Source: Candidatus Limnocylindrales bacterium
GTDB lineage: Bacteria > Chloroflexota > Limnocylindria > Limnocylindrales > CSP1-4
Direction of reading: 5' to 3'
NCBI GenBank assembly: GCA_036278755.1
Contig: DASUKL010000066.1
Location: 625 to 64,624 of the forward strand
Length of the DNA: 64,000 nucleotides
This document shows, in pieces, positions 5,215 through 30,272 of this stretch; positions within the stretch are counted from its first letter, which is position 1; every line of letters begins with the position of its first letter. Under the pieces are notes generated by a model, which was given only the letters and a program-made list of their open reading frames with translations, did no database searches and was not told the DNA's origin. The translations under genes and the position numbers were made by a program.

Positions 5215-6243
5215 TCAGACCTGATAGACGCCGTCCTGGACGATAAGCTCGTCATCAAACCACGCCGTGGCAGCGAGAGCGCTGGCATCGATGTGCCATT
5301 TGGTCGCCATCGCGCCGCCGTATGCGGTGTTGGTCCCGATGCCGAGGTGGAAACCGCCGAAGATGCGTTCATCCTCCACCGGCCAACCCACGGGGGTGCG
5401 CGCCCGGAGGTGGCAACCGAAGCCGTACTCGGCGATGGCGAAGGCTCCGGGATCATCGAGCTCGTCGGCCATCCGTTTCCATTCCTGGGCCGCGGGCCCG
5501 CCGTCGATCTCGACGACGTAACCCGCCTCGATCGTGAGGCGCACCGGAGCTTCACCGGTGAGAGGGCGGCGCACCGGCGTGATGCTCGCGTCGACGACGA
5601 GGGTCCCACTCGTCGTCCCGAAGTCCGGTCCGCCCCCTGCCAACCCGGGCACGAAGTGGGTCCATCCGCCGGGACCGTGGTACAGGGCGTCCATGTTGTG
5701 GACCTCGAGGTCGCCGACCGAGCAGGTCACGTCAGTCCCCTTGGCTGTCGTGACGCGGAGCGTGCCACCCCGACGGAAGCGCTCGGACAAGGCCGTAGAC
5801 GTCCGCCCGATCGCCTCGAGCTCCTCCACCGAGCGGGGTACCAGGTCCAGCCCCCTCCCGCGACCGACGGTGTTCGCGGCGCTGTCGCCACCGAAGATCC
5901 CCAGCACGCGAGCGCCCTTGGCCAGCGCGTTCCGCGTGGCCTGCGTATGGAAGGCCGCCATCGTTGTCCCGATGAAGATCACGTCGGCCGCGGCCATGGC
6001 TCCAGCCACGACTTGAGGCAGCTCCTCGTTCGGTCGGGAGCGAGCCGGGAACTCGATGAGACTGACCTCGGCACCGATCGCCCGCGCGGCGACGTAGACG
6101 GCGTCCGCGAGCTCTCGTGAGCCTGGGTAATCGCGAGCAGTCGGATCGGTGACGACGACCGCCCGCTCTCGGGCCTGGAGCCGCGTGGAGTACTCGACGG
6201 CGATCTGGGCCGCCGGCAACCACTGCACGATCCTTGAGTCCAC
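5215..6243 (-). CDS. M29-aminopeptidase / NicX (2,5-dihydroxypyridine dioxygenase)-like protein
   Basis: C-terminal EYGFGCH...GIGTNTA...WHID resembles the NicX/AmpS fold. Start set at the GTG (VDSRIV) 5 nt after GGAGG; the ORF track starts at a TTG at 6318, which would bury the shared operator motif inside coding sequence. Confidence 0.6.
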   Translation of the reverse strand: MDSRIVQWLPAAQIAVEYSTRLQARERAVVVTDPTARDYPGSRELADAVYVAARAIGAEVSLIEFPARSRPNEELPQVVAGAMAAADVIFIGTTMAAFHTQATRNALAKGARVLGIFGGDSAANTVGRGRGLDLVPRSVEELEAIGRTSTALSERFRRGGTLRVTTAKGTDVTCSVGDLEVHNMDALYHGPGGWTHFVPGLAGGGPDFGTTSGTLVVDASITPVRRPLTGEAPVRLTIEAGYVVEIDGGPAAQEWKRMADELDDPGAFAIAEYGFGCHLRARTPVGWPVEDERIFGGFHLGIGTNTAYGGAMATKWHIDASALAATAWFDDELIVQDGVYQV

Positions 6244-6288
6244 GATGACCTCCGATCCCGCCCCCGCACGTTGCACTACTATATACCG

Positions 6289-6307
6289 GAGACGGGATAC
6301 GGTATCC
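6289..6307. promoter_or_regulatory. candidate operator GAGACGGGATACGGTATCC (second copy)
   Basis: Contains the inverted repeat GGATAC-G-GTATCC. Lies between the NicX-like gene (minus strand) and the Gfo/Idh/MocA gene (plus strand). Confidence 0.45.
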
Positions 6308-6352
6308 AATCCTGTCAACGCTCGGTCGCCGGCAACAGCATCGGAGGAAGGC

Positions 6353-7414
6353 GTGGCTGATGGACAAGCCCAGCGCAGTGGACCGCATCGGTTCGCCGCC
6401 GTAGGGGCCGGCAGGTTCGCTCATCTCTACCATTTGCCAGCGCTGCTCGCCCACCCGCGCGCCAGCCTGACGATGATCTGTGACCCCACGCCGTCAGAGC
6501 ACACGGTCGATCTGGCCAGGCAGGCAGACATCCCGATCGTCGCCGACCTCGATGCGGTGCTCCAGCCAGATATCTGCGACGCGGTGGTCATCTCGACGCC
6601 TGACCGCCTCCACGCCCCCCAGGTTCGCAGCGCCCTCGAGGCGGGGAAGCATGTTCTCGTCGACAAGCCATTCGTCCTTGACGGAGCGACCGCGCGAGAC
6701 CTGACTTCGGTCGCTGAGCGCGATCGCCTGGTGACGGCCGTGGCCTTCAACCAGCGGTTCTCCAACGCGTACCTGCATGCGCGGCGGCTCGTTGCAGAGG
6801 GTGAGCTCGGCGTCATCCGACGCGTCGAGACCATCCAGCTCGGTGGCGACTGGGTGATCTCCCAGGATGGATCGGCGCCCCGGCAGACCGGGCCCCTGCG
6901 GCCGGCCTGGTATCAGGACCCCGAGCTCGCGGGCGGTGGCGTCCTCGTCGGTCGCGGCGCACACATGGCGGACATCGTTCCTTGGGTCCTCGGCCGGCGA
7001 CCGGCTCGACTGCGGGCTGAGGTCGTCCCCGGCTTGTCTGGCGAGGTTGACCGAGGCGGGACAGCGGATCTCGATTTCGGCGATCTCACGTGGCGCTTCG
7101 CCTCCCTGGCTGACCCTGCGCCCCTCTGGGACGACGTCCGGATCTACGGATCGGCGGGCCGTCTCGAGATCCGCAAGCCCGAGGGCACGCTGGGCTTCTG
7201 GTCGATCGCTTACGGTGATATCCACGACGTTGTCATCCCGACTCCGGAACCGGGCATCGACACGGTGGCCGTCGACGACTTCATCGAAGCGATCGAGGGG
7301 CTACATGCGCCCCGCTGCGACTTCGCGAGCGCCTGCACGTCGGTGGACATCCTCGAGGCGATGTATCTCTCCGCCGCGGAGGGAGGCCGATGGGTCTCCA
7401 TCGGCCGGCCATGA
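6353..7414 (+). CDS. Gfo/Idh/MocA-family NAD(P)-dependent oxidoreductase
   Basis: FAAVGAGRFAHLYHLPAL Rossmann N-terminus and a family C-domain; GTG start 3 nt after GGAGGAAG. Confidence 0.8.
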   Translation: MADGQAQRSGPHRFAAVGAGRFAHLYHLPALLAHPRASLTMICDPTPSEHTVDLARQADIPIVADLDAVLQPDICDAVVISTPDRLHAPQVRSALEAGKHVLVDKPFVLDGATARDLTSVAERDRLVTAVAFNQRFSNAYLHARRLVAEGELGVIRRVETIQLGGDWVISQDGSAPRQTGPLRPAWYQDPELAGGGVLVGRGAHMADIVPWVLGRRPARLRAEVVPGLSGEVDRGGTADLDFGDLTWRFASLADPAPLWDDVRIYGSAGRLEIRKPEGTLGFWSIAYGDIHDVVIPTPEPGIDTVAVDDFIEAIEGLHAPRCDFASACTSVDILEAMYLSAAEGGRWVSIGRP

Positions 7415-7578
7415 ACCTGGCTCGCCCGCGGCGATCGTAAACAGCGGGTCCTCGGTTGGAATCCGAGCGTCGGCTCCACTTTGCAACCCGTCGGCCAGCC
7501 CGAGCGGGGTGCTGTCGCTGATCCAGGTGCGGCCTGCTCGCCCCCCGGATAGAGCCGTCCCCGAAGTAATGTTGCGGC

Positions 7579-8495
7579 GTGAAGCCCCGTATCTTCCTCG
7601 GCTCGTCCGGGAAGCAGACGAAGCTGGTGCGGTCACTCACGCGTGGCCTGGCGGAGGTCGCGGACGTCGAGCCCTGGACGGCGGCCTTCAATCCGGGCGT
7701 CTCGACCCTCGATCGCCTCGTCGAGCTCACCCGCGAGGTGGACTTCGCGGCGTTCGTCTTCGCCCAGGACGACTGGACCAGCAATCCTTCGGGATCAGCG
7801 GCCTCGGGCCAGGCGTCGCCCCGCGACAACGTCGTCTTCGAAGCCGGCCTGTTCGGCGGCGCGCTGGGCATGCGCCGGACGTTCATCCTCCACGCCACGG
7901 GCGCGAAGCTGCCGTCCGATCTCTTCGGCATGACGGCGGTGCGTTACCCCGTGAACCCCACGCCTGCCGACATCCGCGAGGTGAACCAGAAGGTCCGCAA
8001 GGCGATCGGGGATGAGGGTCGACTGACCCGCCTGGAGGGGGACTGGTGGCAGCATTCGCTAACGGCCCGGAGCGAGCGTGAGCCGTCGGCGATCAGCCTG
8101 CTCCGGATCTCTCGGGATCGCGATGGCGGTCTCCTTGTGGCCGGCCGGGGATGGCAGGAGGACGGGACGCTCTCGTCGCGATACTGGAGCGTCGCCTCCA
8201 AGGAGCACCGCGATCCGCCAGCGGTCTTCTATTTCTGGAACGGCGAGCGACCACGCGATCCCGATACCCCCAGCTGGAGGGCACGGGCGAGATCCGACTC
8301 GAGTCGGTCGACCGGGCCTCCGGCTACTGGACGACCCGATCCGACGTAGATCCGCTGCTCCGCGAGCGAACGTCCGGCGTTTACCTGCGCGCCGATCCGG
8401 ACGACATGCGCACGCTCGACAGCGGCGAGCAGCAACCGCGCGCGGACCTGCTGGCCCGGCGTCTCAGGGAGTGGTCGACGATCTCGCAGTCGTAA
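7579..8495 (+). pseudogene. TIR-like domain protein (COG4271/PF10137-type, like CBASS/Pycsar effector TIR domains) with a +1 frameshift at a C5 run near 8267
   Basis: N-terminus RIFLGSSGKQ...FAAFVFAQDDW...PRDNVVFEAGLFGGALGMRRTFIL...LPSDLFGMTAVRY matches the TIR-like signature. Frame 1 turns into R/P/S-rich junk after ...FWNGERPRDPDTP. Frame 2 continues plausibly (QLEGTGEIRLESVDRASGYW...) to a stop at 8495. Confidence 0.6.
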
Positions 8496-8647
8496 CGCCG
8501 GTCGAGCACCTCCCAGTACGAGTCGAACGTGTCCGCGAGGGGCCGGCTGATAAAGGAACCCAGGCTTATGCCGCAACGCGCTGGCCGATCTCGGGCGAAC
8601 CCGAGAACGGGCAGACGATCGCGAAGCTCTCCCCCTGATCCTGATAG

Positions 8648-9508
8648 TCAGAGCCGAAGGGTCACCCGGTTGCGGAGTTCGCCCACCGCCTCGACCCACA
8701 CGACGACCTCATCGCCGAGTTGCAGGAAGAGCGGCGGGTCGTACGACTCGCCGGTGCCGTGTGGCGTCCCTGTGGTCACGACATCACCAGGACGCAGGGT
8801 GACGAACCGACTGACTTCGGCTAGGATCTCCGCCACCGTCCAACGCATCTCGCTCGTGGAGGCATCTTGGCGGATCTCGCCGTTCACGCGACTCCCGAGG
8901 CGGAGCCGTTGTGGATCCGGCACCTCGGCCACCGGCACGATCCATGGCCCCAGGGGGCAGAAGCCAGGCCCGGACTTGCCGAGGATGTACTGGTCGCCAG
9001 CGAAGCGCTGATCACGCGACGCGGCATCGTTGACGCAGGTATAGCCGAAGACGTAGTGGAGCGCGTCCTCCACGGCGACCCGGTCCATGGTTCGGCCGAT
9101 GACGATGGCGAGCTCGGCCTCGTAATCGAGCTGCGGGTACGCGACCGGGTCCCAGGGGATGTCGTCATCGGGCCCGATGACCGCGCTGGCGAGCTTGGCG
9201 AAGACGAGGGGCGGCCCTCGTCTCGCACCCCGTGAACCGTTGGGCAGAGGGTAGTTCTCGCCGATGGTCAAGATGGTGGCTGGCGCACACGGGGCGCCGA
9301 GGCGGACCTCCTCCAGCGGCCGGCCCGCTCGAGCGACGCTGCGCTCGGCATCTCTCACCACGCCCTCGACTTCCTCAGGCGCGCCATACAGGTCGGCCAC
9401 GCGACTGACACGCCCGTTGCTCGCTCGCTCGAGAGTCACATACCGTTCACCCGCGATCCAGACGCCCTCGGGCGTCCCATCCGCATGCTGGATCTCCGCC
9501 AGCGCCAT
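8648..9508 (-). CDS. fumarylacetoacetate hydrolase (FAH)-family protein
   Basis: 286 aa with family-wide similarity (…YTCVNDASRD…GKS.PGFCPLGPW…). Confidence 0.85.
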   Translation of the reverse strand: MALAEIQHADGTPEGVWIAGERYVTLERASNGRVSRVADLYGAPEEVEGVVRDAERSVARAGRPLEEVRLGAPCAPATILTIGENYPLPNGSRGARRGPPLVFAKLASAVIGPDDDIPWDPVAYPQLDYEAELAIVIGRTMDRVAVEDALHYVFGYTCVNDAASRDQRFAGDQYILGKSGPGFCPLGPWIVPVAEVPDPQRLRLGSRVNGEIRQDASTSEMRWTVAEILAEVSRFVTLRPGDVVTTGTPHGTGESYDPPLFLQLGDEVVVWVEAVGELRNRVTLRL

Positions 9509-9520
9509 CGCCCGGGTTCC

Positions 9521-10378
9521 CTACGCGAGCGCGGTGGGGTCGGCCAGCAGCGGCTCCACGGCGGCGCGCATGACCGACTCCATGCCGGCGTGGCCCGTCC
9601 ACCGTTCGAAGGCCGCGGCGGCCTGGGCGATGAGCATCTCCTCCCCGTTGGCCGCCTTGAGCCCGTGATCACGGGCAGCCGTGACGAACGGCGTCTCCCG
9701 AGGCACATAGACCAGGTCGAAGACGCTCGTGTCGGGGCCGAAGGCCTCGGGAGGCAGCACCATCCCCGAGTCGATCATGCCCACCGTCGTGGCGTTGACC
9801 ACGAGATCCGCCTGCCGCAGGGCCTGGGCCAGCGCGGCAACGTCCAGGAGTGCGGCTCCGAGGTCACAGTCAGCACTCGGTCCCAGGTCAGCGATCAAGC
9901 CGGCAGCCTGACGCAGGGAACGTGCGGCCACGACGACACGGGCCGCTTGGGCGTCGATACAGGCGCGCACGACCGCTCTCGCTGCTCCTCCGGCCCCGGC
10001 CACGACGACCGTCGACGACCGGAACTTGACCCCCAAGGTGGTCTCGACGGCCGCTCGGAACCCGGTGGCGTCGGTATTGAAGCCGATCAATCGGCCGTCG
10101 TCGCTCCGAACGACGCTGTTGACTGCGCCGATGCTGGCCGCGGCGGGCTCGACCGAGTCGAGCAACCCCACGACAAGCTGCTTGTATGGCGCGGTGATCT
10201 GGAAGCCCAGCCAGTCGGGACCGTACGTCTGGGCCACGAATCCCGGCACCGCTTCCGCCTCGAGATCGTGGAGCTCATAGCGGGCGTCGATCCCGGCAGC
10301 CTCGAACGCTGCGTCGTGCATGACCTGTGAGTGGCGTCGGCGCAGCGGGTGACCGATGAGCGCGACGCGCGCGGTCAT
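9521..10378 (-). CDS. aroE: shikimate dehydrogenase
   Basis: Substrate domain and an NAD(P) Rossmann fold (VVAGAGGAARA). Start ATG at 10376-10378 overlaps the upstream LLM stop (ATGA). Confidence 0.8.
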   Translation of the reverse strand: MTARVALIGHPLRRRHSQVMHDAAFEAAGIDARYELHDLEAEAVPGFVAQTYGPDWLGFQITAPYKQLVVGLLDSVEPAAASIGAVNSVVRSDDGRLIGFNTDATGFRAAVETTLGVKFRSSTVVVAGAGGAARAVVRACIDAQAARVVVAARSLRQAAGLIADLGPSADCDLGAALLDVAALAQALRQADLVVNATTVGMIDSGMVLPPEAFGPDTSVFDLVYVPRETPFVTAARDHGLKAANGEEMLIAQAAAAFERWTGHAGMESVMRAAVEPLLADPTALA

Positions 10379-11421
10379 CCGATCGGCGCTCCGACCTCGC
10401 GCCGGATCCGGCCCGCATCGGCAGGGAATCGCAGGGCCGGCACGATCCGCTCGGCCCACCATGTCAGCTGCTCGGGATCGGGCGTCATCGTGTGCAGCAT
10501 GAAGTAGCTCACGCCGGCGTCGATCCGCGCCTGTAGGGAGGTGACGATCTCATCGGGCGTCCCGAACAGGTACACCGTCTCGAGGTACGCGGGCCCCCGC
10601 TCGGCGCTCATGACCCGCAGGAACGCCTCATGCTGCTCCTGGCGGGCCTTCTCGGGGTCGTCGGACAGGACCAGATGCAGGAAGTTCTCGTGCGCCACGA
10701 CGTACTGGCTCGGATCGCGCCCGTGGGCCCGCAGGTACTCCTGGAGCTCCGCCCAGTCTCGTGCGATCTCGTCGGGTGGGCAGGTCGGCCGGGGGATCCA
10801 GCCATCGGTCCGCAGGACGCGTGCCTTGACCGACTCCACGAAACGGGGCAGGTCGGGTGACTTGGGGTCGGCCAGCTGTGACCCGCCCCCGATCCAGACT
10901 TCCGGGCGACGACTGCTGCGGGGCTCGATGGTCACCCCCTCGACCTTATAGAACTCGCCTTCGTAGGTGACTTCCTTGCCCTCGAGCAAGGGGATGATGA
11001 TGTCGAGGATCTCGTCCGTCCGCCGACCCCGCTCCGACTTGTGGACGCCGACTGCCTCGTACTCCGGCGGGTACCAGCCGACCCCGGCACCGAGCACGAC
11101 ACGGTCCTCGGAGAGGAACTGCAGCGTGGCCAGCTGCTTCGCCAGGAGGACGGGGTTGCGCAGGGGCAGGATCATGATCGAGGTGCCGAGGCGGACGCGC
11201 TCGGTCACCCCGGCGGCGATGGCGAGCGTGACCAATGGCTCCAGCCAGGAGACGGAGTAGAACCGTTTCGCGGCCAACAGATGATCCGTGATGAAGAGCG
11301 AGTCGAACCCGAGGTCTTCCACCTTCCGGGCGAAGGCCTTGATGCCCCGCGCGCGGTCCGTTCCGTCGCCGGCCCAGATGTACGAGGGCAGGAAGACGCC
11401 GAATCGCCCGATGTCCGTCAT
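10375..11421 (-). CDS. LLM-class (luciferase-like) F420/flavin-dependent oxidoreductase
   Basis: 348 aa with a luciferase-like monooxygenase TIM-barrel pattern. Confidence 0.8.
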   Translation of the reverse strand: MTDIGRFGVFLPSYIWAGDGTDRARGIKAFARKVEDLGFDSLFITDHLLAAKRFYSVSWLEPLVTLAIAAGVTERVRLGTSIMILPLRNPVLLAKQLATLQFLSEDRVVLGAGVGWYPPEYEAVGVHKSERGRRTDEILDIIIPLLEGKEVTYEGEFYKVEGVTIEPRSSRRPEVWIGGGSQLADPKSPDLPRFVESVKARVLRTDGWIPRPTCPPDEIARDWAELQEYLRAHGRDPSQYVVAHENFLHLVLSDDPEKARQEQHEAFLRVMSAERGPAYLETVYLFGTPDEIVTSLQARIDAGVSYFMLHTMTPDPEQLTWWAERIVPALRFPADAGRIRREVGAPIG

Positions 11422-27154: not shown

Positions 27155-27819
27155 TCAGTCGGCCGAGGAGTCACCCTCCGATTCGGCAGCGCCCTCGGCA
27201 GGCTGGGCCTCGCCCTCCGGGGCCCCCTCGGCCGCCTCGGCGACCACCGGGGCCTCCTCGACCCGCGGCGCCTGGACGCGAGCGATCGGCTCGTCGAGGT
27301 CCGTCACCAGGGTGACCCGCTCGGGGATGCGCAAGTCGCGAGCATGGAGGGTCGTCTCGAAGGTCTCGAGGGGGGTGATGTCGAATTCCAGCGACGAGGG
27401 CAGGTCCGTGGGGAGGGCCCGCACCCGGACCGTGTCGACGAAGTGGAGGAGCGTGCCGCCCAGCTTGTCCACGGCGAACGACGTGCCGACCGCGGCGATG
27501 GGCACATCGACCGTCATCTCCTCGGTCATCTTGACGAGGTAGAAGTCGACATGGAGCGGCTTGCGGCTGACGGGGTGCTCCTGGACGGCGTGGACCATGA
27601 CCGGCCGGGCCGTGCCGCCGTCCACCTTGAGGTCCACCAGCGCGTTGCGGCCGGCCTGACGGCGCAGCAGGGCGAAGGCCTTGTCCTCGATCTGGAGCGA
27701 CTCCGAGGCCTGGCCGTGCCCGTAGACGACGGCGGGCAGGAGGCCCTGGGCACGCAGGTGCCGGACGGCCTTGCCCTGGATCTCGCGCCGCTGCGCGACC
27801 AGCTCGGGACGGGTGCTCA
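27155..27819 (-). CDS. rplY: 50S ribosomal protein L25 / general stress protein Ctc
   Basis: MSTRPELVAQRREIQGKAVRHLRAQGLLPAVVYGHGQ... with an acidic Ala/Glu-rich tail. Confidence 0.85.
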
Positions 27820-27946
27820 TCGGTTCGAAGGGGACCTCGTGGGGGCGCAGCGGGGCTGGCGCCGGAGTCTCTCGGTGGAGGACACGGATGGCGATGGAGG
27901 GCGAACATCGTACCAGACGCGTCACTTGTGCCACCATCAGACAGCC

Positions 27947-28642
<696 letters not shown>

Positions 28643-28736
28643 CGGCCAGGGACCAGGCCAGCGGCTGGGCCGCCTGAGCGCCGGCCTCCGGCGGCGGCTG
28701 CGGGCTCGACCGGCCCTGGCCTGGATCCCGCTCGGC

Positions 28737-30272
28737 ATGCGTGCCCTCCAATGGCGTCTCGTCATCGCCTTCGTCGGCGTGGTCACCCTGGCCATCGCCA
28801 TCGTCCTCGTGACCCTGCCCAACCTCCTCGACGGCTACTTCGCCCAGCAGGAGCAGAAGAACCTCGACGCCCGGGCCCGGGTCATCGCCACGGTCGTCAC
28901 CCTGCGCATCGGCCTGGCCACAGGCGGCAGCAACGGCGCGGCGCCCATCGTCCTGCCGACCGACCCGCCGACCGCCTCCTCCGTCGTGGCCGATGCCCTG
29001 GGCCGGGCCGGCGATTCGAGCGGGCTGCTAGAGCAGGTCACCTCGAGCATCGCCGAATCGGACCTGGAGCTGACGATCTCCACCAGCCCCGACAGCACGG
29101 GCACGGTGGCCTACCGCCTCACGATCCCCTACCGGCCGCCCCAGCCGATCGCCGGCCAGGAGCCCGACACGATCACCGACACCTACGCCTTCCGCCTGGC
29201 CGACACCTACTGGTCGCAGTTCCCCGGCCAGGCCCCCGCCCGCCTCGTGACGATCACCCTCTCGCACCCCTGGACCTACCGGGCCCAGACCCTCCGCGAC
29301 GTGGTGGGGGTCATGCTCCTCGGCGGCCTCATCGCGGTCGCCGTCTCGATCGTCCTGGCCGTCTTCATCGCCACCCGCCTGACCACGCCCATCCGGCGCT
29401 TGACCCTGGCCTCACGAGCCCTGGCCGAGGGCGACTTCGACGCCCGCGTGACCCATGCCGCGGACAGCGGCGCGCCGGAGGTGGCGGAGCTAGGCGTGGC
29501 CTTCAACCGCATGGCCGATAGGCTCCAGGAATCCATCGAGCTCATCCGCCGCGATCGCGACCGGAGCCGCGACTTCCTGGCCGACGTGAGCCACGAGCTG
29601 CGGACGCCTCTGGCCGCGCTGCGGACCTTCAATGAGCTGCTCCAGGAAGGCGCCGACGACGATCCATCGACCCGAGCCGAGTTCCTCGAGTCCAGCCGGG
29701 GCCAGATCGAGCGCCTCGACTGGTTGGCCCAGAACCTCCTCGACCTGTCCAAGCTCGACTCCGGGCTGGTGGCCCTCGACCTCCGTCCCGACGACCTGCG
29801 GGCAACGGTCGAGGACGCCCTCGAGCAGTCCCAGCCGGCGGCGTCCCGACGCGGCGTGCGCCTCGTGGCCGACTTGCCGCCGGAGCCCGTCCGCCAGCGC
29901 CACGACCCCCAGCGACTGGCCCAGGTGCTCAGCAACCTCATCGGCAACAGCCTGAAGTTCACGCCGCCCGGGGGCAGCGTCCGGGTAGCCCTGAGCGTCT
30001 CGAACACGGGAGCCCGACTGCGGGTCAGCGACACCGGCGTGGGCATCGACCCGGGCGAGCTGCCCCACGTCTTCGACCGCTTCTACCGCGGCACGAGGGC
30101 CGGTGAGGTGCGGGCGGCCGGTTCGGGGCTGGGGTTGTCGATCGTCCGCTCGATCGTGGAGATGCACGGCGGACGAGTGGCCATCGAGAGTACCCCGGGC
30201 CAGGGGACGAGCGTGTCGGTCGACCTGCCGCGTGATGTGGTGCAATCTTCACCCGCCCCTTCCCCGCTCTGA
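28737..30272 (+). CDS. sensor histidine kinase (two TM helices, HAMP, HisKA, HATPase)
   Basis: H-box SHELRTPL and N/G boxes; partner of the upstream response regulator. Confidence 0.85.
   Translation: MRALQWRLVIAFVGVVTLAIAIVLVTLPNLLDGYFAQQEQKNLDARARVIATVVTLRIGLATGGSNGAAPIVLPTDPPTASSVVADALGRAGDSSGLLEQVTSSIAESDLELTISTSPDSTGTVAYRLTIPYRPPQPIAGQEPDTITDTYAFRLADTYWSQFPGQAPARLVTITLSHPWTYRAQTLRDVVGVMLLGGLIAVAVSIVLAVFIATRLTTPIRRLTLASRALAEGDFDARVTHAADSGAPEVAELGVAFNRMADRLQESIELIRRDRDRSRDFLADVSHELRTPLAALRTFNELLQEGADDDPSTRAEFLESSRGQIERLDWLAQNLLDLSKLDSGLVALDLRPDDLRATVEDALEQSQPAASRRGVRLVADLPPEPVRQRHDPQRLAQVLSNLIGNSLKFTPPGGSVRVALSVSNTGARLRVSDTGVGIDPGELPHVFDRFYRGTRAGEVRAAGSGLGLSIVRSIVEMHGGRVAIESTPGQGTSVSVDLPRDVVQSSPAPSPL

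Follow-up and report, generated by a model that had tools for sequence, protein, structure and literature searches.

A frameshifted gene in a Candidatus Limnocylindrales contig belongs to an abundant family joining a Cap12/Pycsar-type TIR domain to a predicted β-barrel

Results

A TIR domain gene interrupted at a run of five cytosines

The window, a 64,000-nucleotide stretch of a Candidatus Limnocylindrales contig, contains a TIR domain gene at positions 7579–8495 of the forward strand. Upstream on the same strand lies a gene for a Gfo/Idh/MocA oxidoreductase, and downstream on the opposite strand a gene for an FAA hydrolase; further genes of the window encode a shikimate dehydrogenase, a luciferase-like monooxygenase, an enoyl-CoA hydratase, an amidohydrolase and a TPP enzyme, all of them metabolic. 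As sequenced, the open reading frame starts at a GTG codon and runs from 7579 to 8349 on the forward strand, giving a product of 256 amino acids whose last 25 residues are out of frame. This product is deposited as HEX5466130.1 under the title [quoted passage not shown]. A second open frame, at 8151–8495, overlaps the first. A C5 run at 8267–8271 (forward strand), the sole run of five or more cytosines within the gene, is one base short relative to every homolog, and restoring one C yields a whole gene at 7579–8495 that encodes 305 amino acids and ends at a TAA stop codon (8493–8495).

The repaired protein is made up of a TIR domain, a β-barrel and two C-terminal helices. The TIR domain, of the Cap12/Pycsar type, spans amino acids 4–123 (7588–7947) and was located with PF10137, phmmer and Foldseek. 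A predicted linker helix (amino acids 129–146; 7963–8016), placed from the AlphaFold2 (AF2) model of the homolog P0001, leads from the TIR domain to the barrel, of which strands 1–5 (amino acids 154–231; 8038–8271) are encoded in the upstream frame, as judged from AF2 models and invariant columns. The remainder, amino acids 232–305, is encoded in the −1 frame at 8272–8495 and comprises barrel strands 6–8, the two C-terminal helices and the stop codon; all of these features lie on the forward strand. The C5 run maps to the loop between strands 5 and 6, and amino acids 232–305 are untranslated in the sequence as it stands. A sequence-only reading of this locus had proposed that a one-base frameshift at the C5 run divides a single gene, and both parts of that proposal hold. 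The frames join into 305 amino acids when one C is added, in agreement with the homologs, and the 7579–8349 and 8151–8495 frames are assigned to one gene because intact 305-amino-acid homologs match the repaired protein end to end at 82–85% identity.

A frameshift of very recent origin, or an error of assembly

In 25 of 25 blastn alignments with the best-matching homologous genes, the window carries a single-base gap at the C5 run, and the homologs align gap-free across the site. At this position the homologs read GCC CCN CAG (Ala-Pro-Gln), with a C6 run in two of them, and the window reads ACC CC- CAG. The phase of GC3 switches at the C5 run, and GC3 stays high in the downstream frame. Across the 74 codons that follow the shift, identity to the homologs is 0.76, compared with 0.75 for intact homologs among themselves, and dN/dS is 0.25, compared with 0.21 in intact pairs. 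Because these downstream codons still bear the mark of purifying selection, the frameshift would be either very recent or not real, that is, an error of assembly. Programmed frameshifting and phase variation were considered and rejected, since homologs differ in the final base of the proline codon and hence keep no common C6 run, and since the tract is short.

An artefact of assembly or consensus calling, with the organism's own gene intact, has to be taken seriously, although we place it somewhat below an even chance. The undiminished conservation of the post-shift codons would be expected under this explanation, as would a post-shift frame that stays open up to exactly the conserved stop codon. 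In addition, the contigs of an independent Logan assembly, that of SRR25158533, match the window at 5993–7529 and 8647–11052 at 100% identity and stop short of the gene on both flanks, at 7529 and at 8647, a pattern that suggests allelic heterogeneity in the reads. Several observations weigh on the other side. Sister records of this MAG series bear MEGAHIT-style k141 contig names, suggesting short-read data, and homopolymer indels are uncommon in short-read assemblies. None of the approximately 60 other open reading frames of the window looks split: three pairs of overlapping frames were candidates, and each proved to consist of two distinct genes whose starts had been over-called. Neither the intact sequence nor near-identical DNA turned up in the collections searched: the intact 305-amino-acid sequence of the window gene is absent from a 15-billion-protein collection, and two metagenome pattern scans returned no other assembly with the same DNA. 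Taken together, we lean modestly towards a real frameshift. Such a frameshift would remove barrel strands 6–8 and both C-terminal helices from the modelled fold, and the product should be non-functional. The copy in the window would thus be a null allele of very recent origin, unless it is an error of assembly.

The window copy belongs to a large and conserved family

A search of 5.8 billion proteins scored at least 8000 matches, and the best 120 of these at least 8000 are nearly all 305 amino acids long and 81–85% identical, at a query coverage of 100%. In a scan covering one genome per GTDB species, relatives were recovered in 460 stretches from about 460 GTDB species genomes, with kept matches 73–89% identical to the query, P0001. 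The closest relatives come from Candidatus Limnocylindrales and other Limnocylindria (Chloroflexota), and a large second clade belongs to the Actinomycetota (Gaiellaceae, Thermoleophilia and Solirubrobacterales), in which Nocardioides gansuensis WSJ-1 (NZ_QDGZ01000002.1, within 264022–280924) and Aeromicrobium sp. 9AM (NZ_LR733303.1, within 958878–975792) are cultured carriers. The window gene falls into the Chloroflexota clade. Across the family there is very little variation in domain architecture, and a dN/dS of about 0.14 indicates purifying selection.

Immune genes seldom keep an identity of 73–89% between two phyla, and the conservation of this gene far exceeds what is typical of defence genes. 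The sequence-only reading had offered a choice between a decaying defence gene and a new single-gene TIR system. That choice is borne out in part; the image of a dying relic does not fit, and a role in defence was not supported. The window copy is better described as a broken or misassembled member of a live family, since the family is intact elsewhere, abundant and under purifying selection.

The N-terminal domain has the active site of an SfSTING-type NADase

The N-terminus had been assigned to the PF10137 type of TIR domain by eye, and the profile search bears this out. PF10137 (CAP12-PCTIR_TIR) matches amino acids 4–123 with 78.3 bits against a gathering threshold of 24.7 (E = 6.1e-22), covering profile positions 1–117 of 119. 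The closest structures are those of TIR-STING: phmmer aligned the TIR half, and that half only, with the TIR-STING protein of Sphingobacterium faecium (SfSTING; 7un8_A) at E = 4.7e-18, and Foldseek likewise matched only the TIR half to 9lmq and 7un8 at E = 6e-9, with sequence and fold matches to both structures ending at about residue 150. The PADLOC models for the CBASS “Effector TIR” and for PycTIR also match the TIR half. The TIR half of the full-length AF2 model of P0001 is only moderately confident (pLDDT 56–79), and the TIR-barrel protein contains no hydrophobic segment.

In SfSTING, the active site is formed by F6, S10, W33, F37, L47, R78, N80, E84 and D110, of which E84 is catalytic and D110 acts in trans, completing the active site of the neighbouring subunit (PMC9402430). 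In the alignment with 7un8_A, the corresponding residues of the family (F6, S10, W33, F37, L47, R82, N84, E88 and D114) are identical at nine of nine positions, with little or no variation across 11 members of the family. This conservation is strong evidence, at the level of sequence, that the TIR domain would be an NADase that needs TIR domains to pack against one another before its active site is complete. As the nine identical residues include the trans-acting aspartate, the oligomerisation-dependent mechanism of SfSTING is expected here as well.

The C-terminal domain is a predicted eight-stranded barrel

The sequence-only reading had described the C-terminal ~170 amino acids as belonging to no recognisable family, and this description stands for searches of Pfam, NCBIfam, PADLOC and the PDB, none of which returned a sequence match for the C-terminal 154 amino acids (approximately 150–305) even at E ≤ 10. 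When 1.84 billion cluster representatives were searched exhaustively with HMMER for the C-terminal domain, only 372 matches came back, mostly fragments of members of the same family. AF2 modelled the domain with high confidence (pLDDT 87.5, pTM 0.84) as eight antiparallel strands followed by two helices, and the full-length model agrees. Invariant residues in strands 1–5 include G-x-W-W-Q, W192 and Y218-x-W220-x-G, and strands 6–8 carry the motifs G-x-G-E-I, A-x-G-Y and Y269-x-R271, with the invariant aromatic and arginine residues at alternating strand positions.

In structural comparison, the natural barrel closest to the C-terminal domain is that of Cap15, at a score that de novo designed barrels equal. 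A Foldseek search with the domain returned calycin-type barrels only, none below E = 1e-3, with Cap15 outside the top 50. From these models we concluded that the domain is predicted to fold as a ligand-binding barrel like that of Cap15 or of the calycins. A STING or cyclic nucleotide-binding (CNBD) identity of the domain was rejected, as AF2 folds it into an up-and-down barrel built of β-strands throughout and neither PF00027 nor STING was matched.

Sequence homology to the Cap15/OptE family was looked for and not found. PF18153 (Cap15_CD_rec) gave no hmmscan match at E ≤ 10 for 16 C-domain sequences, nor for the relatives P0201, P0271 and P0272, and scored VnOptE at E = 2e-19. An OptE-family profile was built from the VnOptE sequence (supplement of PMC12657218) and 120 collected relatives; hhalign aligned the C-domain family profile to it at 7% probability and out of register.

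Distant relatives of the protein show the same barrel on different N-terminal modules. P0206 and P0229 keep the PF10137 TIR domain and have C-terminal domains of 38–41% identity. In P0255, a TIR_2 domain (PF13676) is followed by one hydrophobic or transmembrane (TM) segment and then by the C-terminal domain. In P0201, P0271 and P0272, which are rare relatives, the C-terminal domain begins at about residue 70 and follows two hydrophobic or TM segments, a layout that is the same as in Cap15 and OptE. The two-TM and TIR_2 variants lie on short contigs, whose gene content gives little guidance. Because the domain is swapped between killing modules, and because it stands where STING stands in the nearest TIR relative, we infer by analogy that it behaves like a signal receptor.

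The gene is an orphan in metabolic surroundings

Open reading frames were called in 79 homolog loci and clustered; no neighbour or partner is conserved in 78 homolog loci. The claim that the gene stands alone, with neither a cyclase nor a SLOG partner, is therefore upheld here and in the 78 homolog loci. Up to four genes away, the families that occur most often are α/β hydrolases (18 loci), class III cyclases (14), RibD_C proteins (12) and CBS-pair proteins (12), and a stand-alone CBS-pair gene is adjacent in 12 of 78 loci. Linkage to a cyclase was considered and rejected, as the 14 class III cyclases near the gene compare with 13.9 expected from background; class III cyclases account for 27 of the 1131 open reading frames in the homolog loci. 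A conserved operon partner was rejected as well, because the upstream same-strand genes at short gaps all fall into different clusters. Among 127 immediately flanking proteins, about five matched any PADLOC model and one matched a PycC model, and no CD-NTase was present among the PADLOC matches; by Pfam the flanking proteins belong to ordinary metabolic families. Conservation between loci reaches no further than ~100 nt upstream of the coding sequence and ~40 nt beyond its end. No relatives were found in a phage collection or in IMG/VR, and plasmids matched only through the TIR domain. The gene is a true orphan, a single-gene unit found in unrelated contexts and outside defence islands.

The locus had also been singled out as defence-like. 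The types of its domains are all that points that way; the absence of defence islands, the small number of PADLOC matches among flanking genes (about 5 of 127), the lack of phage and plasmid relatives of the whole protein and the high conservation of the family speak against it.

A −10-like hexamer, TAATGT, is located at 7567–7572 on the forward strand, 6 nt before the GTG start codon. The pattern TANNNT occurs 6–7 nt before the start codon in most homologs of the Chloroflexota clade and in 1.6% of random 25-mers from the same loci. The hexamer suggests a leaderless transcript from the gene's own promoter. A consensus scan returned no full sigma-70 promoter, and Rfam gave no match to a riboswitch or other RNA element in 6500–9500 at E ≤ 1.

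Discussion

Relation to known sensor-fused TIR systems

The closest TIR domain by sequence and fold is that of Cap12/TIR-STING (SfSTING, 7UN8; 9LMQ), which shares the order of an N-terminal TIR and a C-terminal sensor and a similar length (312–331 amino acids, against 305 here). The sensors differ, however, as the C-terminal domain of SfSTING has the α/β STING fold and that of the window gene is predicted to be an all-β, eight-stranded barrel. The NCBIfam Cap12 equivalogs NF050172 and NF050171 score 81.4 and 40.5 bits, against the at least 450 required, and align to the N-terminal ~130 amino acids only. Cap12 is encoded in an operon with a CD-NTase, whereas no locus of the window family has an adjacent CD-NTase, and the hosts of the family, Chloroflexota and Actinomycetota, are unlike those of Cap12.

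PycTIR (8JSJ) shares its TIR clade with the window protein, which matches the PADLOC PycTIR model at E = 1e-20 and, by phmmer, 8jsj at E = 1.4e-7, and PycTIR is likewise a two-domain protein of about 300 amino acids that joins a sensor to a TIR NADase. Its domains are in the reverse order, with the sensor N-terminal and the TIR C-terminal, and the PADLOC model aligns by its TIR part only (profile positions 151–284 to amino acids 2–145); the window family has no adjacent PycC. In Cap15/OptE (S-2TMβ; PF18153; 7N34) the barrel sits on two TM helices, whereas here it sits on a TIR NADase, and the domain described here has two extra C-terminal helices and no adjacent CD-NTase or mCpol. The S-2TMβ barrel has been described as obligately fused to its 2TM element (PMC12657218). 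Thoeris ThsB differs in that its family, PF08937, gave no match at E ≤ 1, and the window family has no conserved ThsA-like neighbour. Lipocalins, avidins and nitrobindin, the calycin-type ligand binders among the best Foldseek matches, resemble the barrel with none below E = 1e-3.

As far as sequence and domain layout go, the TIR-barrel protein would work like TIR-STING and PycTIR, yet by defining features it falls outside Cap12, PycTIR, Cap15 and ThsB. What is new is a predicted TIR NADase effector whose fused sensor is a Cap15-like barrel lacking annotation and which has no synthase. A description of such a TIR-barrel fusion was not found in the literature searched, the coverage of which was incomplete.

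A ligand-gated NAD+ hydrolase and its alternatives

We propose, at what we judge to be roughly an even chance, that this stand-alone, monocistronic 305-amino-acid gene of soil Chloroflexota and Actinomycetota encodes a ligand-gated NAD+ hydrolase. By analogy with Cap15, the barrel would bind a small molecule, most likely a nucleotide-derived signal, and its occupancy would decide whether the protein assembles into an oligomer with active TIR domains. NAD+ would then be depleted and growth would stop, most plausibly as abortive defence against phage, with an unlinked enzyme or the invader as the source of the ligand. Both the ligand and the defence role are drawn from analogy with the related systems. 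No synthase is linked to the gene, and domain types alone indicate defence; both points count against a ligand-gated immune model.

An unlikely alternative, although one with several observations behind it, is a non-immune switch of NAD+ turnover, for example in dormancy or stress, with the barrel sensing a metabolite as lipocalin and avidin barrels do. The metabolic neighbourhoods without a defence-island signal agree with such a switch, as do the strong purifying selection with 73–89% identity across phyla, the near-constant architecture, the CBS-pair gene adjacent in 12 of the 78 loci and the calycin-type ligand binders among the best Foldseek matches. To our knowledge, however, every characterised PF10137 TIR protein is an abortive-infection effector, and in rare relatives the same barrel sits on two TM helices, a killing module. 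Furthermore, a single cassette in unrelated contexts points to horizontal transfer and not to a core function.

Two immune variants lie within or next to the proposed ligand-gated hydrolase model, and we consider each of them improbable. In the first, a Panoptes-like inverse guard, a housekeeping nucleotide (c-di-AMP or c-di-GMP) would occupy the barrel and keep the TIR domain monomeric, and phage sponges or nucleases that drain the pool would allow oligomerisation and NAD+ destruction. There is a precedent in the Cap15-family barrel of OptE/2TMβ, which works by such inverse logic with 2′,3′-c-di-AMP (PMC12657218, PMC12657230). The gene is an orphan in 78 of 78 loci, and the absence of a dedicated linked synthase would be explained if ordinary host cyclases supplied the ligand; high conservation would also fit a ligand that does not change. 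On the other hand, homology of the barrel to OptE is undetectable by sequence, and the Panoptes synthase adjoins its effector. In its more general form, which we regard with similar doubt, this would be a single-gene immune sensor with no dedicated synthase, whose barrel either monitors a housekeeping nucleotide or binds a phage-made one and then fires the TIR domain. Such a synthase-less guard of the Panoptes kind would have reached its hosts among soil Chloroflexota and Actinomycetota by horizontal transfer.

In the second variant, for which the likelihood again appears low, the protein would be a CBASS- or Pycsar-type effector acting in trans, receiving its cyclic nucleotide from a CD-NTase or PycC-like cyclase elsewhere in the genome. 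Its TIR domain lies in the Cap12/Pycsar clade, its barrel resembles the Cap15 receptor (in a predicted fold, with designed barrels scoring alike), and class III cyclases are plentiful, at 27 of 1131 open reading frames in the loci. Yet PycC models are matched by one of 127 flanking genes, cyclases near the gene are no commoner than in the surrounding DNA, and no CD-NTase is found among the flanking genes. We also know of no CBASS or Pycsar effector that is not operonic with its synthase.

Why the family matters

TIR NADases with a fused STING, SAVED or cNMP-binding sensor recur as a central theme both in the immunity of bacteria and in its connection with that of eukaryotes. In every studied case known to us, the signal was revealed by a neighbouring synthase. 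In the very abundant family described here, a TIR domain of the SfSTING type is joined to a β-barrel that lacks annotation, and a partner gene is missing altogether. Should this barrel be a receptor for nucleotides, the Cap15-type barrel would be a portable sensor that is not tied to membrane effectors, and the source of its signal becomes the question. If it senses a metabolite instead, the family would provide a rare case in which ordinary physiology makes use of a TIR NADase. That the window copy is broken or misassembled lowers the value of this locus and not that of the family, and the question can be put to the test because cultured carriers exist among the Actinomycetota.

Divergence, probable horizontal spread and possible population variation of the TIR-barrel gene

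The 300-aa proteins of the 81 compared loci share a mean pairwise identity of 82%, and copies from Chloroflexota and Actinomycetota, the two clades into which the homologs fall, are still ~75% identical to one another. Within the Chloroflexota clade, which includes the window copy, synonymous divergence is only ~0.6. As the similarity between phyla is far greater than expected under vertical descent, comparison of these sequences points to horizontal spread of the TIR-barrel gene.

At the window locus itself, contigs from an independent Logan assembly (SRR25158533; L090, L091) match window positions 5993-7529 and 8647-11052 at 100% identity, with one ending 50 nt ahead of the TIR gene start and the other 152 nt past its stop (break points 7529/7530 and 8646/8647). 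The assembler made no join across the TIR gene in this run, which suggests that the cassette varies in the population, either as alleles or as presence and absence.

Many of the representatives of the family's 50% clusters are frameshifted ORFs themselves (P0136, P0162, P0261, P0253, P0196, P0180 and P0218), in which out-of-frame stretches rich in Arg, Pro, Ala and Gly take the place of part of the TIR domain or of the barrel. Behind these representatives lies either repeated inactivation of a gene that is toxic or noise from assembly that the clustering has enriched.

Upstream sequence and neighbouring genes

Most Chloroflexota-clade copies (loci L002-L020 and the window) carry a -10-like hexamer, TANNNT, 6-7 nt ahead of the start codon (TAATGT at 7567-7572 in the window), a spacing that is the layout of a leaderless mRNA. 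In place of this layout, Actinomycetota copies are preceded by a conserved block of ~40 nt that comes in two versions, each shared between copies although their upstream genes differ.

In 12 of 78 loci, all 12 of them from the Actinomycetota clade (L024, L027, L032, L035, L039, L054, L057, L058, L060, L064, L077 and L082), the TIR-barrel gene, which mostly spans about 8001-8906 there, lies directly next to a stand-alone CBS-pair gene (~144 aa, PF00571). The CBS-pair gene is divergent where it is upstream and convergent where it is downstream. Conversely, every ORF of the CBS cluster found in the homolog loci (12/12) adjoins the TIR-barrel gene. Because CBS pairs bind adenine nucleotides, this adjacency could hint at the signal, or else it could be synteny of the lineage.

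Two further arrangements were observed. In a single Chloroflexia MAG (L001/L014), and only there, an ORF of 242 aa (9276-10004) that matches no Pfam family shares 4 nt with the TIR-barrel gene start in an operon-like arrangement. In a Maribacter sp. MAG, P0201 (L083, 3893-4558) joins two TM helices to the C-terminal predicted β-barrel domain, and 51 nt upstream of it lies a gene whose 1279-aa product contains a TcA/TcB toxin-binding domain; a search of 5.8 billion proteins found only four of this two-helix form.

Start calls of other window genes

The Gfo/Idh/MocA ORF at 6149-7414 (+) is over-called at its 5' end. As a GTG at 6353 follows GGAGGA and yields a 353-aa product that a Logan assembly contains in identical form, the true gene is 6353-7414, without overlap with the gene upstream. 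In the 555-aa ORF at 27155-28822 (-), ribosomal protein L25/TL5 domains are confined to aa 341-520; this ORF either bears a long N-terminal extension or is over-called at its start. A weak tblastn match of class III cyclase type (27959-28255) also falls inside its coordinates.
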